Of a DNA stretch of 49,871 nt, positions 8,989 to 49,829 are shown one piece after another. Source of the stretch: an uncultured Eubacteriales bacterium (GTDB taxonomy: Bacteria; Bacillota; Clostridia; Acetivibrionales; CAYWGM01); the NCBI GenBank assembly GCA_964457875.1, contig CAYWGM010000007.1, positions 1-49,871 on the forward strand. The letters are read 5' to 3'. Each line of letters opens with the position of its first letter. The stretch's first letter is position 1. A program made the translations under genes and the position numbers. Under the pieces are notes generated by a model. The model worked only from the letters and a program-made list of their open reading frames with translations. It had not been told where the DNA came from and did not search any database.

Positions 8989-10473
8989 ATGAAAATATTA
9001 TTTATATACCCGCAATATCCGCAGACATATTGGAGCTTTCATTACGCCCTGAAATTCATTTCGAAAAAGGCGAACTACCCGCCTCTCGGCCTACTGACCG
9101 TAGCTGCGATGACCCCGCGGGATTGGGATAAAAGGCTTGTGGATATGAATGTGCAAAGATTGAATGACATTGATATTAAATGGGCTGACTATGTTTTCAT
9201 AAGCGCCATGGCAGTCCAAAAAGAATCTGTCAAAAGAGTTGTTGAAAGATGTAAAAAACTTGGTGCGAAGATAGTTGCCGGCGGTCCTCTTTTCACTGCA
9301 AATTATGAAGAATACGAAGGTATCGATCACCTGTTATTGAACGAAGGCGAGTTGACGCTTCCTCAATTCATATGCGATTTGCAGGAAGGAAATGCCCGGA
9401 AGATATATTCGTCGGACCGTTGGGCCGATATCACCACGACGCCGGTACCGCAATGGGATCTGATCGACATTAAAAAATATGCGTCGATGAACATACAATA
9501 TTCAAGAGGCTGCCCATATAATTGCGAATTTTGCAATATCACCGATCTGTTCGGCAGGATTCCGCGGACCAAGACAGCCGGCCAGATCCTTACGGAACTT
9601 GAAAGCTTGTATGCTGAAGGTTGGAGAGGCGGCGTCCTGTTTGTCGACGATAATTTCATCGGAAACAGCAAGAAATTAAAAGAAGAGATACTGCCTGCCA
9701 TTACTAAATGGATGGATATAAAAAAGCATCCTTTTGTCTTCTTTACAGAGGCGTCTATTAATCTGGCAGACGATGAAGAACTCATGAATATGATGGTCAG
9801 AGCCGGATTCGATGCGGTATTTGTGGGCATTGAATCACCTGATGAGGACAGCCTGAAGGAGTGCAATAAATATCAGAACAGAAACCGTGATCTTTTGTCA
9901 TCCATTAAAAAGATCCATGCGGCAGGAATGCAGGTTCAGGGCGGATTCATACTTGGCTTCGATAATGATAAACCGGGCACGTTCGAACGTCTGATAAAGT
10001 TCATCCAGGAAAGCAGCGTAGTGACTGCGATGGTAGGATTGCTCAATGCGCCGAAGGGCACGAAGCTGTATGACAGGATGAAGGAGGAAGGTCGCTTGTT
10101 AAAGACATTCTCAGGCGATAATACTGACTATTCGATGAATTTCATTCCCAAGATGAATCACGATATGCTGATTAAGGGATATAAAAAGGTCGTCAATACC
10201 ATCTACTCTCCCAAATACTATTGTGACAGGGTCATCAGTTTTCTCAAAGAATATGTGCCGATAAAACATGGCCTGGCGAAAATCAAGTTTAATGAACTCA
10301 GGGCATTTATCAAGTCGATATTTGTGCTGGGGATTGCCGGCAAAGGCAGGTTGTATTACTGGAAGCTGTTCATCTGGGCGCTTTTCAGAAAGCCGAGACT
10401 GTTTCCTATGGCTATTGTATTTTCGATTTACGGATTCCATTTCAGAAAGGTTTTCAGGAAGACCTATGAATGA
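8989..10473 (+). CDS. B12-binding-domain radical SAM protein with DUF4070-type C-terminus (class B rSAM)
   Basis: 494 aa. N-terminal cobalamin-binding-like Rossmann (ILFIYP...PPLGLLTVAAM...VFISAM), CxxxCxxC cluster (SRGCPYNCEFCN), and a basic/hydrophobic C-terminal extension. Confidence 0.85.
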   Translation: MKILFIYPQYPQTYWSFHYALKFISKKANYPPLGLLTVAAMTPRDWDKRLVDMNVQRLNDIDIKWADYVFISAMAVQKESVKRVVERCKKLGAKIVAGGPLFTANYEEYEGIDHLLLNEGELTLPQFICDLQEGNARKIYSSDRWADITTTPVPQWDLIDIKKYASMNIQYSRGCPYNCEFCNITDLFGRIPRTKTAGQILTELESLYAEGWRGGVLFVDDNFIGNSKKLKEEILPAITKWMDIKKHPFVFFTEASINLADDEELMNMMVRAGFDAVFVGIESPDEDSLKECNKYQNRNRDLLSSIKKIHAAGMQVQGGFILGFDNDKPGTFERLIKFIQESSVVTAMVGLLNAPKGTKLYDRMKEEGRLLKTFSGDNTDYSMNFIPKMNHDMLIKGYKKVVNTIYSPKYYCDRVISFLKEYVPIKHGLAKIKFNELRAFIKSIFVLGIAGKGRLYYWKLFIWALFRKPRLFPMAIVFSIYGFHFRKVFRKTYE

Positions 10474-11542
10474 GCCTTATTCAATTGAGGATCTGGAGAC
10501 CCCGGCCTTATTGATCGACATGGATGCCATGGAGTGGAACATCCGTACTATGGCTGGCTACTGGACAGGCCGGAAGGCCAAATTGCGGCCGCATTTCAAG
10601 ACGGCGAAATGTCCGCAGATAGCTCGTATGCAAATGGATGCGGGAGCTGTTGGGATCACATGCGCGAAGACGGGGGAAGCCGAGGTTCTGGCTGAAGCGG
10701 GGATCAGGGATATTCTGGTTGCCAATCAGGTTGTCGATCCCAATAAAATACGCAGGCTTGCAGGTATGGCTCGCACAGGGATCCGGATAACCGTTGCCGC
10801 GGACAATAAGGATAATGTGGCTGATTTGTCAGATGCCGCCGTTGAGGCGGGTACGACGTTGCACATATTGATCGAAGCAGATGTCGGTATGGGAAGATGC
10901 GGAGTGAATACACCCGCGGAAGTCCTTGACCTTGCGAGGAAGGTAATTGAATCTCCCGGTCTGGCATTTGAAGGAATACAGGCCTATGAAGGCCATATTG
11001 TGCTTAATCCTGAAAGGAAAGAGCGCGTTGAAGGCGTCCGCAGGATGATTGAAAAAATCGGGGAAATCAAAGACACTCTTGAAAGAAGCGGGATACCGGT
11101 CATAAGTATAAGCGGCGGCGGTACCGGAACATACGATATTACCGGCGATAATACTATTTGGACGGAGATTCAGTCCGGGTCGTACGTTTTTATGGATAAT
11201 ACATACAGCAAGCTTGGGCTCGGATTTAAAAGCTCATTGTCAGTCCTTGCGACAGTGATACATAAGCGTAGTGGCATTGCTGTCACTGACACCGGAAGGA
11301 AATCGTGCTCGACCGACATGGGGATGCCGGTGATGAAAGGCAATCCTGAGCTAAAAATCAGGTTGAACGAGGAACATGGCATAATAGAAGATGAAAATGA
11401 TATATTGCAATATAAGCAGAAAGTCGAGTACATACCGGGCCATTGTTGTACCACGGTCAATCTGCATGACAATTACTTCTGTACAAGGGCGGGATGTGTT
11501 GAGGCCGTATGGCCTATATCAGCGCGCGGTAAAAGCAGGTAG
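10466..11542 (+). CDS. D-TA/DSD1-family PLP enzyme (D-threonine aldolase / D-serine dehydratase-like; alanine-racemase-N fold)
   Basis: ORF 10268..11542. ATG 10466 (MNEPYSIEDLETPALLID...) overlaps the rSAM stop by 8 nt. PLP-Lys motif LRPHFKTAKCP and C-terminal metal/β-domain motif IPGHCCTTVNLHD. Confidence 0.75.
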   Translation: MNEPYSIEDLETPALLIDMDAMEWNIRTMAGYWTGRKAKLRPHFKTAKCPQIARMQMDAGAVGITCAKTGEAEVLAEAGIRDILVANQVVDPNKIRRLAGMARTGIRITVAADNKDNVADLSDAAVEAGTTLHILIEADVGMGRCGVNTPAEVLDLARKVIESPGLAFEGIQAYEGHIVLNPERKERVEGVRRMIEKIGEIKDTLERSGIPVISISGGGTGTYDITGDNTIWTEIQSGSYVFMDNTYSKLGLGFKSSLSVLATVIHKRSGIAVTDTGRKSCSTDMGMPVMKGNPELKIRLNEEHGIIEDENDILQYKQKVEYIPGHCCTTVNLHDNYFCTRAGCVEAVWPISARGKSR

Positions 11543-15429: not shown

Positions 15430-16883
15430 GCAAATTGATATTCGAGATCAGCGCAGAAGGCAAAAGCACGTTCCGGGCGCCTGCGGCAGACCCGGAGTGT
15501 GAGAACTGCAAAGGCAGCGGGGATGCTATCCCTGATAAATTCATGCGGAAATCGCCGGCCGACCTTCCTGAAGTTTCTGAGCCTGAACTCGTCAGGCATT
15601 ATACAAGACTTTCCGGTATGAATTTCGGCGTCGATTCCGGATTTTACCCTCTCGGTTCCTGCACGATGAAATACAATCCGAAGATAAATGAAAATATAGC
15701 CAAATATGAAGGTTTCTCCAAAGTCCATCCGATGCAGGATGAAGACACGGTGCAAGGATGTCTCGGGTTGATCCATGATCTCGGAGCGATGCTTTGTGAA
15801 ATCACCGGCATGGCCGGTTTTTCGATGCAGCCTGCGGCAGGTGCGCATGGCGAGTTCGCCGGATTGCTGATGATCAGGGCTTGGCATAAATCGAGAGGCG
15901 ACGAAAAGAGGACGAGGATAATCGTCCCCGATTCGGCCCATGGCACAAATCCGGCTTCTGCGACAATGGCGGGTTTCAACGTGACAGTCATAAAATCCGA
16001 TGAGATGGGCTGCGTGGATATCGGATCGCTGAAATCGGCCATCGGTGATGATGTCGCCGGTCTGATGCTTACAAACCCCAATACGTTAGGATTGTTCGAT
16101 GAGAATATTGTCATGATATCGGAAATCGTGCATGGTTGCGGCGGATTACTGTATTATGACGGGGCTAATGCAAATGCCATACTTGGCATAACCAGACCGG
16201 GGGATATGGGATTCGATGTAGTACATCTCAATCTGCACAAGACTTTCGGGACTCCTCACGGAGGCGGCGGACCGGGCGCCGGACCGATCGGAGTGACTGA
16301 AGAGCTCTTGCCGTTTTTACCTGTCCCTGTGATAATCAATAAAGATGGAAGGTATACCGAAGATTATGACAGGCCTCTATCGATAGGGCGTATGAAGGCT
16401 TTCAACGGTAATTTCGGCGTATTGGTAAAGGCCTATGCATATATCCTCTCGCATGGCGCGTCAGGCTTGCGGATGAATTCCGAAATGGCTGTGCTCAACG
16501 CCAATTATCTGATGAAGCTTCTCAAAGAGCGGTACCATCTTGCGTATGACAGGCCGTGCATGCATGAATTCGTCATCTCGGCAAAAAACCAGAATGCATA
16601 TGGCGTTACGGCGATGGACATCGCAAAAAGGCTCATTGATCTTGGCATACACCCTCCCACGGTCTACTTTCCTCTAATTGTCAGGGAGTCGATAATGGTG
16701 GAACCTACCGAGACGGAGAGCAAAAGCACCCTGGACGCCTTTGCAGCCGCGATGACGCAGATAGCCGACGAGGCGGCTTCGCAACCGGAGTTGCTGAAAC
16801 AAGCGCCTCACAATACTCCCGTCAGGCGGCTGGATGAAGTCAAAGCGGCTAGGGAACCTGTGCTGACTTATAAGAATAAATAG
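15426..16883 (+). CDS. gcvPB: Glycine dehydrogenase (decarboxylating) subunit 2
   Basis: ATGA overlap with gcvPA. PLP-Lys motif [18 protein letters not shown]. 485 aa. Confidence 0.9.
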
Positions 16884-16885
16884 TA

Positions 16886-17605
16886 TTAGGCGAATATTTC
16901 CGGCAGTCCGACGTCCAAGCCTTTAAATATAAAGGATTTGGCCGTATCGTCCCTGACGAATTGCTTCATATTTTCTATTTTGTTGTCCTTGAATTGATAT
17001 ACGGATAATTCTTTGTTTTTATAATTCACTATCCAATATTCCTGCACGCCTGAATTCAAATAAAGGTCCAATTTCCTCACAAGGTCGTGCCTTACCGAAG
17101 ATTCCGACATGACTTCGACAACAAGCGCGGGGACGCCCTCGTACTTATCCTTGTCGTTCATGTTTTCCGGGTCGCATATGACCAGCACGTCAGGCTGCAC
17201 CATATTCATATGCTTCCCGTTCTTAACGATCTTCACATCGAAAGGCGAGAGGTACGGGCGGCACTTTTTGCCCCCGAACCATGAACGAAATATAGTGTAG
17301 ATGTTTCCAATGATTTGCTGGTGTGTGGATTTGGGTGAAGCAAGCAGGTACACTTCGCCGTCGATATACTCATACCTTTCGTTGCTTTTCTCGTACATTT
17401 CAAGGAATTCGTCAAAACTCATTCTTTTGCCTTGGTAGTTGTATGCCACTCCGTGTTCGGCAACGATACTTTCGAAATCCCAGTCTTCAAGCTTTGTGAT
17501 TTTTGCTACCGGCTTTCCGCTCCTTGTAACGATGATATCTTCCTGCCAAAGCAGCTGCAGGTATTTGCCAAAATTATTCTTGATATCGGTTGCGCTTATG
17601 ATCAT
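16886..17605 (-). CDS. Fusion protein: Phd/YefM-type antitoxin domain (N) + Uma2/DUF820 PD-(D/E)xK putative endonuclease (C)
   Basis: 239 aa. Residues 1-45, MIISATDIKNNFGKYLQLLWQEDIIVTRSGKPVAKITKLEDWD, form a Phd/YefM N-domain pattern. Residues ~60-239 show Uma2 hallmarks: YEYIDGEVYLLASPKSTHQQI, QPDVLVICD, PALVVEVMSESSVRHDLVRKLDLYLNSGVQEYWIVN. It is a single uninterrupted ORF. Convergent with gcvPB (2-nt gap) and divergent from htpG. Confidence 0.75.
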   Translation of the reverse strand: MIISATDIKNNFGKYLQLLWQEDIIVTRSGKPVAKITKLEDWDFESIVAEHGVAYNYQGKRMSFDEFLEMYEKSNERYEYIDGEVYLLASPKSTHQQIIGNIYTIFRSWFGGKKCRPYLSPFDVKIVKNGKHMNMVQPDVLVICDPENMNDKDKYEGVPALVVEVMSESSVRHDLVRKLDLYLNSGVQEYWIVNYKNKELSVYQFKDNKIENMKQFVRDDTAKSFIFKGLDVGLPEIFA

Positions 17606-17623
17606 ATCACCACTCCTTAACTA

Positions 17624-17691
17624 ATATATTGACTATTATAATTATAGGGCAGCTTAAATAGTTAGTCAATATATCAGCTAATATATCAGCT
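17624..17691. repeat. 12-bp inverted repeat (27-bp spacer) plus 2 x 12-nt tandem direct repeat; putative operator set
   Basis: ATATATTGACTA (17624-17635) and its exact reverse complement TAGTCAATATAT (17663-17674). AATATATCAGCT is repeated head-to-tail at 17668-17679 and 17680-17691. The right arm covers the -35 box of the minus-strand promoter. Confidence 0.7.
17641..17669 (-). promoter_or_regulatory. Near-consensus sigma-A promoter for the Phd-Uma2 gene
   Basis: Minus strand reads TTGACT (comp. 17669-17664), 17-nt spacer, TATAAT (comp. 17646-17641). Located about 35 nt upstream of the ATG at 17605. Confidence 0.5.
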
Positions 17692-17726
17692 GAATATTTT
17701 GATGTAGATGACCTTGCCGTTACATC

Positions 17727-24901: not shown

Positions 24902-25390
24902 ATGTATAAAAAGAACCTGTGTGTTTATGAAATGCTTGAAAAACTGGGATTGATACTACCTCCGGCGCCGCAGGCAGTAGGGCTTTATTCGCCCGTAAAA
25001 CAATCGGGCAACCTGCTTTATGTATCCGGACAAGGCTTCATCAGAGACGGGAAGGCATTGATACAAGGCAAAGCCGGCTCGGACGTGTCTTTGGAGCAGG
25101 CGCAGGAAGCTGCCAGAGGAGCCGCGCTTAATATGCTGAGCGTGTTGGATAAATACACAAGTGATCTCAATAGGATTGGCAGCGTTGTCAAACTGCTTGG
25201 ATTCATAGCCAGCGCTCCGGGCTTCAATAATCAGCCTAAAGTCCTGAATGCTGCGTCACAGCTCTTTATCGACCTGTTCGGCGAGGCTGGCAGGGCGGCA
25301 CGATCGGCCGTCGGCGTAAATGAGCTTCCGCTCAATCTGACCGTCGAACTGGAAGGGATATTTGAGCTCTTAGGGGGTTGTAGGATTTGA
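24902..25390 (+). CDS. RidA/YjgF-family protein
   Basis: ORF 24860..25390. Likely start is ATG 24902 (GGAG 9 nt upstream) or ATG 24887. LPPAPQAVGLYSPVKQSGNLLYVSGQG...VGVNELPLNLTVELEGIFE is typical of RidA-family subgroups. Confidence 0.85.
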   Translation: MYKKNLCVYEMLEKLGLILPPAPQAVGLYSPVKQSGNLLYVSGQGFIRDGKALIQGKAGSDVSLEQAQEAARGAALNMLSVLDKYTSDLNRIGSVVKLLGFIASAPGFNNQPKVLNAASQLFIDLFGEAGRAARSAVGVNELPLNLTVELEGIFELLGGCRI

Positions 25391-25428
25391 AATCTGATTC
25401 TAGTAGTAAAGCTGAATATAAGAAGAGA

Positions 25429-26331
25429 ATGGTTCACCTGAAAGGCGGATTTTCCGAGAGAAAAGGTATTACTGATTTTAGTAAAAAGATTCAGATTAAT
25501 TCACTTGATACAAGAACAAGGAATTATATCGTTAATTTCCTTGGTGATTTTATACCAGAAATGCTGAGAGTAGATAAGACGGAAAGCTATAAGGGTGATA
25601 GGGTACAAGGGTATAAAGGTTTTATTAAATACTTGTATACAGACATATTTTCCAAAACGTTGGGCGACATTCCGATTAAATTTGGGGTCTATGATGAGCC
25701 TTGGATCGTATACCAGCAAGTTGAAAGAGATATTTATGTAGTGGTTGAGACAGGTAGCTATGATGAAGTGTTTGACTTATTGATTGCAATAAACCAATAC
25801 CTCTTAAGATTATATAATATATCAAACCCTTTTAAGATGAGAATCAATTCAATATTTGAACGTGAAGGAGTAATGTATAGATTTGTTGGCGAAACGATAA
25901 CTGACATTACAAATGAAAGCGAAATAAATGAAATTAACGAAGCCTTAAGTTATAACGATGATAGTTGCACACAACATTTATTAAAGGCAATTGGATACTT
26001 ATATAACCGAGAGAAGCCGGATTATGAAAATAGTGTAAAAGAATCAATTTCTGCTGTTGAAGCTTTATGTAATATTATTACTGGCAGCAAAGATTCGTTA
26101 GGCAAAGCATTATATAGATTAACAACGTTAGGTATTAAAATACATCCTTGTATGGAAAATGCTTTTGAAAAGCTTTATGGGTACACATCCGATGAAGCTG
26201 GAATTCGACACGCCAGTGGGCTTGATTTAAGGACCACATTTGCTGAAGCAAAATTTATGCTTGTATGTTGTTCAGCTTTTGTAAATTATTTAAGGGATAT
26301 ATCCGTTAAGTGTTCGGAAGGTAAGGCATAG
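25429..26331 (+). CDS. AbiJ-like abortive-infection-type protein (AbiJ_NTD4-like N-domain + Abi_C/HEPN-like C-domain)
   Basis: ORF 25387..26331. TTG 25387 overlaps the ridA TGA; the first ATG is 25429. The N-terminus FSERKGITDFSKKIQINSLDTRTRNYIVNFL resembles the FSxRxG...IQIDSMDxxLRN start of AbiJ_NTD4 proteins. The C-terminus has KLYGYTSDEAGIRHA. Hand counts of 60-nt lines give ~22-30 % GC, against ~65 % in the adjacent ridA 3' end. Confidence 0.55.
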   Translation: MVHLKGGFSERKGITDFSKKIQINSLDTRTRNYIVNFLGDFIPEMLRVDKTESYKGDRVQGYKGFIKYLYTDIFSKTLGDIPIKFGVYDEPWIVYQQVERDIYVVVETGSYDEVFDLLIAINQYLLRLYNISNPFKMRINSIFEREGVMYRFVGETITDITNESEINEINEALSYNDDSCTQHLLKAIGYLYNREKPDYENSVKESISAVEALCNIITGSKDSLGKALYRLTTLGIKIHPCMENAFEKLYGYTSDEAGIRHASGLDLRTTFAEAKFMLVCCSAFVNYLRDISVKCSEGKA

Positions 26332-47967: not shown

Positions 47968-48645
47968 TTGAAGAAAGCGATCATAGTGTGCGGCGGCAGG
48001 ATCGAAGATTATTCCCGCTACCGAAGGTATTTTCATAATGGAAGCGAAGGGTATCTGATAATATGCGCAGACAGCGGCGCCACCCACCTCAGAAAGCTTG
48101 GTGTTCTGCCGCATGTCCTCATAGGCGATTTTGATTCGATAGTATGTTCCGACATGGAATATTTCCGTAAACAGGATGTGGGGATCATCAGCCATCCTGT
48201 CTATAAAGACAAGACAGATTCTGAGCTTGCAGTCGAATACGCGATAGACAGCGGATGCGATGAAATCGTGATTATTGGTGGCTTCGGCTCAAGGGCGGAC
48301 CATTCTATGGCAAATATCATGCTTTTGAAGAAGATCAGCGATGCAGGCTGCAAAGGCATGCTGGCGGATGAGAATAACGAAGTGTACCTGTTGGAACCGA
48401 AAATACCCTTCGGGATTACTTGCGGCAAATGTAGCAGTAGCAAGGTTTCACTAATACCTTTGACCGATACTGTCGAGGGTGTGACAACGAAAGACTTGCG
48501 TTTTAGTCTTGATAATGCTGTTATAAAAATGGGGTCTACCCTGGGCGTCAGCAATGAATTCATTTTAGACGGCGATGGTATGATCAATGCCCAGATATCC
48601 ATAAAAAAAGGGCTTCTTTTAGTTATCGTTTCAAAAGATTCTTAA
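47968..48645 (+). CDS. thiN: Thiamine diphosphokinase
   Basis: TTG start. Motifs IICADSGATHL, LIGDFDS, KDKTDSELA, GGFGSRADH. Occupies the canonical position after rpe. Confidence 0.85.
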   Translation: MKKAIIVCGGRIEDYSRYRRYFHNGSEGYLIICADSGATHLRKLGVLPHVLIGDFDSIVCSDMEYFRKQDVGIISHPVYKDKTDSELAVEYAIDSGCDEIVIIGGFGSRADHSMANIMLLKKISDAGCKGMLADENNEVYLLEPKIPFGITCGKCSSSKVSLIPLTDTVEGVTTKDLRFSLDNAVIKMGSTLGVSNEFILDGDGMINAQISIKKGLLLVIVSKDS

Positions 48646-49829
48646 ACCCCGATACACTCTTTTGCAAGCAAACCGAAGGCTGGCAGTGATGCCTTTATGG
48701 TTTCGAGGCTGACACAATAGGCGATTCTGAAATAGCCAGGGCAGCCGAAGCCCCTTCCCGGCACAACGAGGATATTATAGTCCAATGCCTTTCTGGCGAA
48801 TTCTGTGTCATCTTCAATGGGACTTTTCGGAAACAGATAAAATGCGCCTTTTGGTTTGATGCATGAAAAACCGAGGCTTATCAGGTGATTGTAAAGCAGG
48901 TCTCTTTTTGCCCCATATACGGCGATATCTATTCCGGTACCTATGGTATCCGCCACTACTTTTTGGAGAGTGGACGGCGCGTTTACGAAACCGAGCGTCC
49001 TATTGCAGAATATAAGGCAGTTTATCAGCATGTCGACGTCTTTGATAGCGGGCGATACAGCCACATATCCGATCCTTTCACCCGGGAGCGAATGCGATTT
49101 GCTGAATGAATTTGCAAGTAAGCCGTTTTTAAAGATGCCAAGCACCGGAGGAACGACCGTGCCGTCATATACTATCCTGTCATAGGGTTGATCGGAAATA
49201 ACATATATGTTTGTGCCGTATTTATTTTCTGTCTTTTCTAAAACGGCGGCGATTTGCCTGAGGGTTTTTTCGCTGTATACGGCGCCGGTCGGATTGTTAG
49301 GTGTATTTATGATGATAGCCTTTGTTTTGGCAGTCATACTCTTTTCCAGTACCGCGGCATCGGGTTCAAACGTGGTCATGTCAGTGGGCACGATCACCGG
49401 GCGGCCATCAGAATTCTCTATGTAGAAAAGATATTCAACAAAATAGGGAGAGAAGACTATGACCTCTTCCCCCGGATTCAACAGCGACTTCAGTATCACA
49501 TTAAGCCCGCCTGCAGCTCCGCACGTCATCACCACATGCTTATCCTCCAGATCCACTCCTTGCTCGCGCGTAATGAATCCGGCAATCTTTGCCCTGACGT
49601 CTGCATAACCTGCATTACTCATATATCTGTGAAGTCCTTTGAATTGCCCCGATGCGTACCGCTTAAAGGCATCCATAACTGATTCAGGTGGATCGGCGTC
49701 GGGATTTCCGAGACTGAAGTCATAAACCTTTTCCGGACCATGGATCCGCCTGAGCTTCTCGCCCTCTTCGAACATAGCCCTTATGAAGGATGAACCCGAA
49801 AGATTTTTCACTGTTTTATCTGAAAACAT
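48642..49829 (-). CDS. Class I/II PLP-dependent aminotransferase (aspartate/alanine aminotransferase-like)
   Basis: 395 aa. Motifs DFSLGNPD, INTPNNPTG, and PLP-Lys motif SFSKSHSLPGERIGY. Its stop overlaps the thiN stop (convergent, TTAA). Confidence 0.85.
   Translation of the reverse strand: MFSDKTVKNLSGSSFIRAMFEEGEKLRRIHGPEKVYDFSLGNPDADPPESVMDAFKRYASGQFKGLHRYMSNAGYADVRAKIAGFITREQGVDLEDKHVVMTCGAAGGLNVILKSLLNPGEEVIVFSPYFVEYLFYIENSDGRPVIVPTDMTTFEPDAAVLEKSMTAKTKAIIINTPNNPTGAVYSEKTLRQIAAVLEKTENKYGTNIYVISDQPYDRIVYDGTVVPPVLGIFKNGLLANSFSKSHSLPGERIGYVAVSPAIKDVDMLINCLIFCNRTLGFVNAPSTLQKVVADTIGTGIDIAVYGAKRDLLYNHLISLGFSCIKPKGAFYLFPKSPIEDDTEFARKALDYNILVVPGRGFGCPGYFRIAYCVSLETIKASLPAFGLLAKECIGV

Follow-up and report, generated by a model that had tools for sequence, protein, structure and literature searches.

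A widespread Bacillota gene that joins a Phd-type DNA-binding domain to a predicted Uma2 nuclease and carries operator-like repeats at its own promoter

Can a domain known from the repressors of toxin-antitoxin (TA) systems control a putative nuclease to which it is covalently joined? This question is raised by a gene in a 49,871-nucleotide (nt) stretch of DNA from an uncultured Eubacteriales bacterium (contig CAYWGM010000007.1; 49.9 kb, hereafter the window), which encodes, in one open reading frame (ORF) between gcvPB and htpG, an N-terminal domain of the Phd/YefM antitoxin type and a C-terminal domain of the Uma2 family. Phd/YefM antitoxins repress their own operons, and their C-terminal segment binds and neutralizes the toxin. 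An earlier note, made from the DNA sequence, had taken the gene for an orphan fusion of a toxin-neutralizing module to a predicted nuclease. Here, the window was compared with related loci (named L001 etc.), and the results suggest that the gene and its relatives, termed Phd-Uma2, probably constitute an autorepressed module in a single polypeptide, consisting of a Phd-type DNA-binding domain and a Uma2 nuclease domain. The operator-like repeat arrays described below, which were found at the promoters of Phd-Uma2 genes, are a new finding and point to autorepression of these genes.

To define the architecture of the protein, profile searches were combined with structure prediction. The N-terminal part was recognized by PhdYeFM_antitox (PF02604; cut-off, 29.8 bits) over residues 2 to 44, with an E value of 1.4e-8 and 34.8 bits, and by the NCBIfam model TIGR01552 (phd_fam; cut-off, 20.8 bits) with 27 bits. 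An AlphaFold2 (AF2) model was built on an alignment of 33 sequences and has a mean predicted local distance difference test score (pLDDT) of 87.5. It contains a strand-helix-strand-strand unit at residues 2 to 36 (strand 2 to 4, helices 5 to 18, and strands 24 to 28 and 31 to 36), a low-confidence or disordered stretch at residues ca. 37 to 59, and a confident alpha/beta domain at residues 60 to 239. When the modeled N-domain was searched against the PDB with Foldseek, the matches included 4zlx ("N-terminal DNA binding domain of the antitoxin Phd"), 2odk (a putative Phd), and 6jqy (the N-domain of VapB46), all with a probability of 1.0 and a root mean square deviation of 0.8 to 1.6 Å over 38 to 41 residues. 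Sequence searches of the PDB were weak: the 58-amino-acid (aa) N-part gave no significant match with phmmer, and a profile of 36 N-part sequences yielded weak matches (E values of 0.01 to 0.1) to the YefM-type antitoxins 3g5o and 9g12. Support for the N-domain thus rests on Pfam, TIGRFAM, and Foldseek, and these, together with the AF2 model, confirm the single-ORF fusion and the domain boundaries that the earlier note had proposed.

What has been retained of the antitoxin appears to be one half only. The PF02604 match is confined to profile positions 3 to 47 of 74 and is followed by the disordered linker, and we therefore judged the neutralizing segment to be absent. By profile coverage and predicted structure, the Phd part is the DNA-binding and dimerization half, with the neutralizing C terminus replaced by a linker of variable length, so that the "toxin-neutralizing module" of the earlier note does not hold. 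Within this otherwise variable linker, E50 and Y55 (nt 17441 to 17458) are invariant among the 33 homologues of alignment A1, which are 48 to 63% identical. The two residues could form a short docking motif, perhaps one for cis-inhibition, or could mark the point where the Uma2 domain really begins; in the AF2 monomer, there is no confident contact between the N-domain or linker (linker pLDDT below 60) and the Uma2 domain.

That the protein might be an ordinary type II antitoxin, acting on a toxin encoded elsewhere in the genome, is what its database names imply, since homologues are listed as "type II toxin-antitoxin system Phd/YefM family antitoxin" (the antitoxin naming of NCBI and JGI), "prevent-host-death family protein", and "Uma2 family endonuclease". 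The N-domain scores above both the Pfam and the TIGRFAM cut-offs, and the nearest relatives include P0123 and P0134, which are apparently true stand-alone antitoxins. These belong to the few short matches in the representative library that look like real small antitoxins; as a class, stand-alone versions of the N-domain were rejected, most short matches being truncated or frameshifted fusions such as P0122. We nevertheless find an ordinary antitoxin scarcely credible, since the toxin-binding part of Phd is missing and a conserved domain of nuclease fold makes up three quarters of the protein. Furthermore, no separate toxin ORF was seen next to the fusion gene in the window, as the earlier note had observed, or at the 81 related loci analyzed, and none of the Doc, YoeB, RelE, and ParE toxin families is among the 25 most frequent Pfam families of 127 immediate neighbors. 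Phd of phage P1 and the YefM antitoxins share with Phd-Uma2 the N-terminal fold, and the palindromic repeats over the promoter of Phd-Uma2 are as would be expected from the autoregulation of such antitoxins. In contrast to these antitoxins, Phd-Uma2 has neither a toxin-binding C terminus nor an adjacent toxin gene and is fused to a nuclease domain. Two defining features of Phd/YefM antitoxins are missing from the fusion protein, which should not be classed as one, and the annotation "Phd/YefM family antitoxin" is misleading for a protein that lacks both the neutralizing segment and a toxin partner.

The C-terminal domain, as judged from profile, predicted fold, and active-site variant, is a clear member of Uma2/COG4636. 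Uma2 (PF05685; cut-off, 27 bits) matched residues 64 to 223 with an E value of 2.3e-32 and 112 bits, and the fusion protein matched PDB entry 9y1l with an E value of 4.7e-25. Foldseek aligned the modeled C-domain with the Uma2/DUF820 structures 6okh, 9y1l, 3ot2, and 1wdj at template modeling (TM) scores of 0.77 to 0.88. The motifs YEYIDGE, QPD, EVxS..D..K, and EYW, from which the nuclease domain had originally been recognized, are all present, and D123, P138-D139, E164, S167, D174, and K178 are invariant in the 33 homologues. P138-D139, E164, and K178 align with the same residues of 9y1l and 6okh. Together with D123, they make up a putative active site of the "PD-EXX-K" variant, to which S167 and D174 may be added. 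Such an active site, with the Lys migrated to the following helix, was described for COG4636 by Feder and Bujnicki (PMC551604), and the Uma2/DUF820/COG4636 proteins TT1808 (1wdj), Ava_3926 (3ot2), 6okh, and 9y1l have it in common with Phd-Uma2, along with the fold. The Uma2 domain is accordingly predicted to be a nuclease in which all putative catalytic residues are intact.

The predicted nucleases of Uma2/COG4636 form a very large family, accounting for more than 2% of the genes of Gloeobacter violaceus (PMC551604). Its members have been regarded as predicted endonucleases (PMC2701414 and PMC3424549), and the former work called Uma2 a "likely solo toxin", whose links to antitoxins are rare and whose paralogues occur in cassettes. 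Fold recognition has connected the family with the Hjc/Hje resolvases. In the papers found on Uma2/COG4636, neither biochemical activity nor regulation is reported for any member, and a search for papers on "9Y1L" returned unrelated matches only. The family is also listed in PADLOC as a candidate for single-gene phage defense: the hidden Markov model (HMM) PDLC04832 of PDC-S03 matched residues 58 to 238 with an E value of 1.4e-57. This HMM spans the Uma2 part only, the literature search found no paper on PDC-S03, and the match is only a lead to the role of the fusion gene.

To examine how Phd-Uma2 genes might be controlled, promoter and neighbor statistics were taken over 81 loci, and the remaining 1.26 Mb of these loci served as the flank background. 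The 130 nt upstream of the homologues contain tandem copies of the palindromic core TAGCTA, often as TTAGCTAA, directly 3' of the -10 box. TAGCTA was counted 132 times in the 81 upstream segments of 100 nt versus 159 times in the flanks, which corresponds to a 129-fold enrichment. For TTAGCTAA, the counts were 61 and 19, a 500-fold enrichment, and the flank count is close to the chance expectation, with no depletion. At least two strict cores are present within the upstream 130 nt at 59 of the 81 loci, whereas the same is true of 6 of 777 control genes. Degenerate cores, e.g., TAGCCA, TGGCTA, or TAGATA, were seen at most of the other loci. The cores peak 20 to 50 nt 5' of the start codon, and their dominant spacing is 9 nt (50 of 83 intervals). 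Where a promoter could be recognized, core starts fall mostly +5 to +25 nt past the -10 hexamer, over the expected transcription start (71 of 76 loci). Across the family, an array consists of 2 to 5 short palindromic repeats extending from the -35 box to just past the -10 box. Paired cores were found outside the own promoter only four times in the 1.26 Mb, and two of these four are located 5' of another Phd-Uma2 paralogue.

The window gene has its own version of this array (Table 1). Its clade uses the units TAGCTGA, TAGTCAA, and TAGTTAA with a 12-nt period, a register shared by the nearest relatives, L001 and L004. This promoter is the only place in the window where the 12-nt paired pattern occurs, and 0 of 100 shuffles reached three matches. 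Transposon-like terminal repeats were ruled out as an explanation, as the arrays are present only 5' of the gene. For the window, an RNA element in the leader was rejected as well, since the leader gave neither a stable fold (z = -0.02) nor an Rfam match that exceeded noise. When N-domain residues were compared by eye with the operator variants, no clear pattern of covariation beyond clade structure was seen.

A second group of Uma2 genes allows the repeats to be assigned to one of the two domains. In HTH_17-Uma2 proteins, a small N-terminal DNA-binding domain is likewise followed by a linker and a Uma2 domain (ca. 250 aa in all), and their genes are likewise solitary and preceded by a repeat array of their own. 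They differ from Phd-Uma2 in the fold of the N-domain (HTH_17, an excisionase-type helix-turn-helix), in the Uma2 domain, which is ca. 26 to 31% identical to that of the window protein, and in the array, which is a triple (A)GTTGATT repeat without TAGCTA. Thus, the repeat follows the N-terminal DNA-binding domain and not Uma2. Such genes were seen at L029:11189-11941, L024:1239-1994, L034:11482-12234, L046:11701-12453, and L068:8581-9324, and in Syntrophomonas and related genomes, they often lie 1 to 2 kb from a Phd-Uma2 gene.

Taken together, these features would suit a gene in which N-domain dimers bind the promoter repeats and shut off their own synthesis, so that the amount of a potentially harmful nuclease stays low and self-limited. 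A gene of this kind would be a "solo toxin" equipped with its own repressor in place of a separate antitoxin. The effector would be the Uma2 domain, acting as a nuclease on DNA, possibly branched DNA. Loss or titration of a labile N-domain, whether by proteolysis, phage-induced shut-off, or competing DNA, would at once lift the repression and set the nuclease free. This logic would suit a TA-like role in stress or an anti-phage role and would be consistent with the PADLOC PDC-S03 match. It also agrees with two ideas of the earlier note, namely, a Phd-fold DNA-binding domain joined to a nuclease and, in the phrase "auto-repressed selfish element", the word "auto-repressed"; both fit the conserved operator-like arrays on the promoters. 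In its biological role, the protein may be a stress toxin, an anti-phage effector, or a DNA-processing enzyme.

Several observations weigh against this interpretation. Compared with the family core, the repeats in the window are degenerate, and their spacing is 12 nt, not 9 nt. The arrays lie partly in the transcribed leader, which leaves room for a role at the RNA level or for binding of another host factor. Autorepression alone would explain neither how the cell tolerates the nuclease nor how the nuclease becomes active. The immediate neighbors of Phd-Uma2 genes are mostly housekeeping genes, and the neighborhoods do not look like defense islands. An addiction role gains no support from the plasmid and phage collections searched, for the fusion was found in none of these, while Uma2-only proteins were present in 30 of 72,556 plasmids and in 1 phage. 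Finally, the case for binding, repression, nuclease activity, and toxicity is wholly sequence based.

One alternative is that Uma2 is not an enzyme here. The protein could be a dedicated transcription factor, its Uma2 part serving as a catalytically silent domain for oligomerization or for sensing a ligand or a DNA structure, with no toxic or nuclease function. Indeed, the strongest evidence presented above is confined to the binding of DNA and to autoregulation. In addition, cells tolerate the gene in the absence of an immunity partner, and the PD-(D/E)XK fold is known to occur in noncatalytic proteins as well (PMC551604). A silent domain is nevertheless hard to reconcile with the invariance of D123, P138-D139, E164, and K178 in 33 diverged homologues and their occurrence in stand-alone Uma2 structures. 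Moreover, the arrays are found almost exclusively at the own promoter, and no regulon is visible. We consider a pure transcription factor unlikely.

Alternatively, the N-domain might guide the nuclease. In a homing-like, sequence-targeted selfish element, the Phd domain would direct Uma2 to TAGCTA-type sites in alleles lacking the gene or in foreign DNA, and cleavage there would spread the gene or restrict invaders. A free-standing nuclease gene with a DNA-binding domain, scattered singly among unrelated housekeeping genes, present in multiple copies in some genomes, and in the window wedged as close as 2 nt to gcvPB, has the look of such an element, and truncated and frameshifted copies do exist. 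Yet, the arrays are part of the promoter of the element itself, so that a cut there would destroy the element, and neither its 3' end nor the junctions carry a further array. Nor is TTAGCTAA depleted in the flanks, as noted above. The G+C content (GC) of the fusion gene is 0.439, and that at third codon positions (GC3) is 0.579, both inside the spread of the window genes (0.469 ± 0.039 and 0.521 ± 0.058, respectively). With this host-like composition, recent horizontal transfer of the gene was discarded as unsupported, and neither the composition nor the absence of the fusion from the plasmid and phage collections lends support to a reading of the gene as recently "inserted" or "selfish". We regard a homing-like element as quite improbable.

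A further-reaching version of the autorepressed module would make Phd-Uma2 a widespread one-gene TA or abortive infection device of Bacillota. In this device, the N-domain would both repress the gene and park the nuclease on its own array, until active Uma2 was released, either on a phage cue or because the labile N-domain or linker was proteolytically removed. This is conceivable but speculative, and we would not bet on it. If it were true, it would offer a first functional and mechanistic handle on the large Uma2/COG4636 family, an orphan for 20 years. The autorepressed module would, if real, represent an unusual control of a toxic enzyme, in which the effector carries the repressor half of an antitoxin as a fused domain and the neutralizing half has been lost. 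The Phd-Uma2 clade is a compact and testable system, comprising a single gene, its promoter, and a defined set of repeats.

Two fused TA proteins provide a useful comparison. CapRel-SJ46 and EzeT are single-chain TA proteins in which the antitoxin part neutralizes the toxin domain in cis. Like Phd-Uma2, they are products of stand-alone genes and unite in a single chain an effector of the toxin type with a domain derived from an antitoxin. In contrast, Phd-Uma2 has kept the DNA-binding domain and not the neutralizing one, and its control is predicted to be transcriptional. Classic Uma2 proteins differ in another way: they are single-domain proteins of ca. 190 aa that are hugely expanded in Cyanobacteria, whereas Phd-Uma2 has the additional N-terminal Phd domain, occurs in Bacillota, and has a dedicated operator-like array. 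Both types of gene are solitary, with paralogues that are sometimes clustered, in line with the "cassettes of paralogous genes" of PMC2701414.

The solitary nature of Phd-Uma2 genes is evident from their neighborhoods. Across the 81 loci, the neighboring genes vary in strand, length, and spacing, and there is no conserved partner gene. The gap upstream of the Phd-Uma2 gene is usually 100 to 300 nt, and this spacing indicates that the gene is monocistronic and has a promoter to itself. When four genes on each side were clustered, the sole recurrent family comprised further Uma2 paralogues (11 loci). The 127 immediate neighbors were distributed over 159 Pfam families, each present in at most 4 proteins, and the commonest are ordinary ones, including an HtrA-type protease, LigT, dehydrogenases, hydrolases, and transporters. 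Matches to defense models near Phd-Uma2 genes are few and scattered.

The architecture proved to be anything but an "orphan". At an E value of 1e-5 or below, 1271 protein clusters were retrieved, and domain architecture was read from the best 120 of them, most of which are ca. 237 to 250 aa long. Both Pfam domains are recorded for 114 of these; the other 6 have Uma2 alone recorded, at a length of ca. 239 aa and 100% query coverage. A scan of species-representative genomes gave at least 583 confirmed relatives. The best 80, which are those described here, all span residues 1 to 238 and are almost all from Bacillota (Bacillaceae, Paenibacillus, Ruminiclostridium, Syntrophomonas, Tepidanaerobacteraceae, Halanaerobiales, and Desulfocucumis). 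Thus, Phd-Uma2 is a widespread architecture that already sits in the databases under the generic names given above. As the earlier note had supposed, it is without a published function in the literature found. The papers found on Uma2 mention neither a Phd fusion nor an operator; Anantharaman and Aravind (2003), cited in PMC2701414 for a link between Uma2 and TA systems, is outside this coverage and may contain an earlier remark on the fusion.

Paralogues of Phd-Uma2 were also observed. R. cellobioparum has two loci, and one Clostridiaceae metagenome-assembled genome has at least five (L047, L079, L003, L005, and L031), of which L047 and L079 are on the same contig, JBDKVA010000102.1, ca. 13 kb apart. 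This expansion recalls that of Uma2 in cyanobacteria. In at least two of three metagenome samples, a Phd-Uma2 gene comes in two pieces, an N-part of 75 aa (P0122) and a distinct Uma2 ORF of 149 aa (L164:908-1616 and L166:442-1150), and the third contig, L165, ends within the second ORF. The split form is either a frameshifted pseudogene or a genuine two-gene version.

The features of the window gene are listed in Table 1.

Table 1. Position and supporting evidence of the Phd-Uma2 gene, its domains, and its upstream signals in the window
Feature	Coordinates (nt)	Strand	Basis or remark
Phd-N-domain/Uma2 fusion ORF	16886..17605	-	Complete; 239 aa plus stop; ATG start
Phd/YefM-type N-terminal DNA-binding/dimerization domain, residues 1-42	17480..17605	-	Pfam, TIGRFAM, AF2, Foldseek
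Linker, residues 43-58, variable length, predicted disordered	17432..17479	-	AF2 pLDDT 45-59; alignment A1
Uma2/DUF820/COG4636 PD-(D/E)XK-fold domain, residues 59-239	16889..17431	-	Pfam, PADLOC, PDB 9y1l, Foldseek; invariant residues in alignment A1
Ribosome-binding site AAGGAG	17613..17618	-	7 nt 5' of ATG
Downstream operator-like repeats TAGTCAA-tatat-TAGTTAA	17617..17635	-	Between -10 box and ribosome-binding site, over expected transcription start
Promoter: -35 TTGACT (17669-17664), 17-nt spacer, -10 TATAAT (17646-17641)	17641..17669	-	11/12 match, sigma-70-type
Upstream operator-like repeats CAGCTGA-tatat-TAGCTGA-tatat-TGACTAA	17662..17693	-	12-nt register; last repeat overlaps -35 box

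The flanking genes were identified in NCBIfam as GcvPB (769 bits) and HtpG (662 bits), both above their equivalog thresholds. The placement described in the earlier note was confirmed: the stops of gcvPB and the fusion gene are convergent and separated by 2 nt, and htpG is divergent across a spacer of 198 nt. The same arrangement of the fusion gene is present in the conspecific contig L163, which is 99% identical at the nucleotide level. The two copies of the fusion gene show 9 differences, and only 2 of them alter the protein, a proportion that indicates purifying selection. The window contains one Phd-Uma2 copy, and its exact protein sequence has no entry in the protein records. In metagenomes, identity to the window gcvPB did not exceed 65% even among its closest relatives, and none of 80 such relatives has htpG or the fusion downstream; L163, where the arrangement is identical, is the only close one.

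Between the stops of gcvPB and the fusion gene (16881-16888), there is no space for a terminator, so transcripts of the gcv operon are expected to continue across the fusion gene in the antisense orientation, and antisense interference is possible. The sole terminator-like hairpin farther along the + strand is the operator palindrome itself followed by a T-run (17674-17693). Nearly all long ORFs of the window are on the + strand, the two on the - strand being the fusion gene and 48642-49829. Such a distribution fits a Bacillota chromosome with a strong leading-strand gene bias, from which the fusion gene departs.

Elsewhere in the window, the same-strand ORFs 8989-10473 and 10268-11542 (+) overlap by ca. 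206 nt as listed, and the true start of the second one is probably farther downstream. A 314-aa ORF at 25387-26331 (+) has a GC of 0.334 and a GC3 of 0.279, far below the window means (0.469 and 0.521), has no NCBIfam match, and may have been acquired recently.

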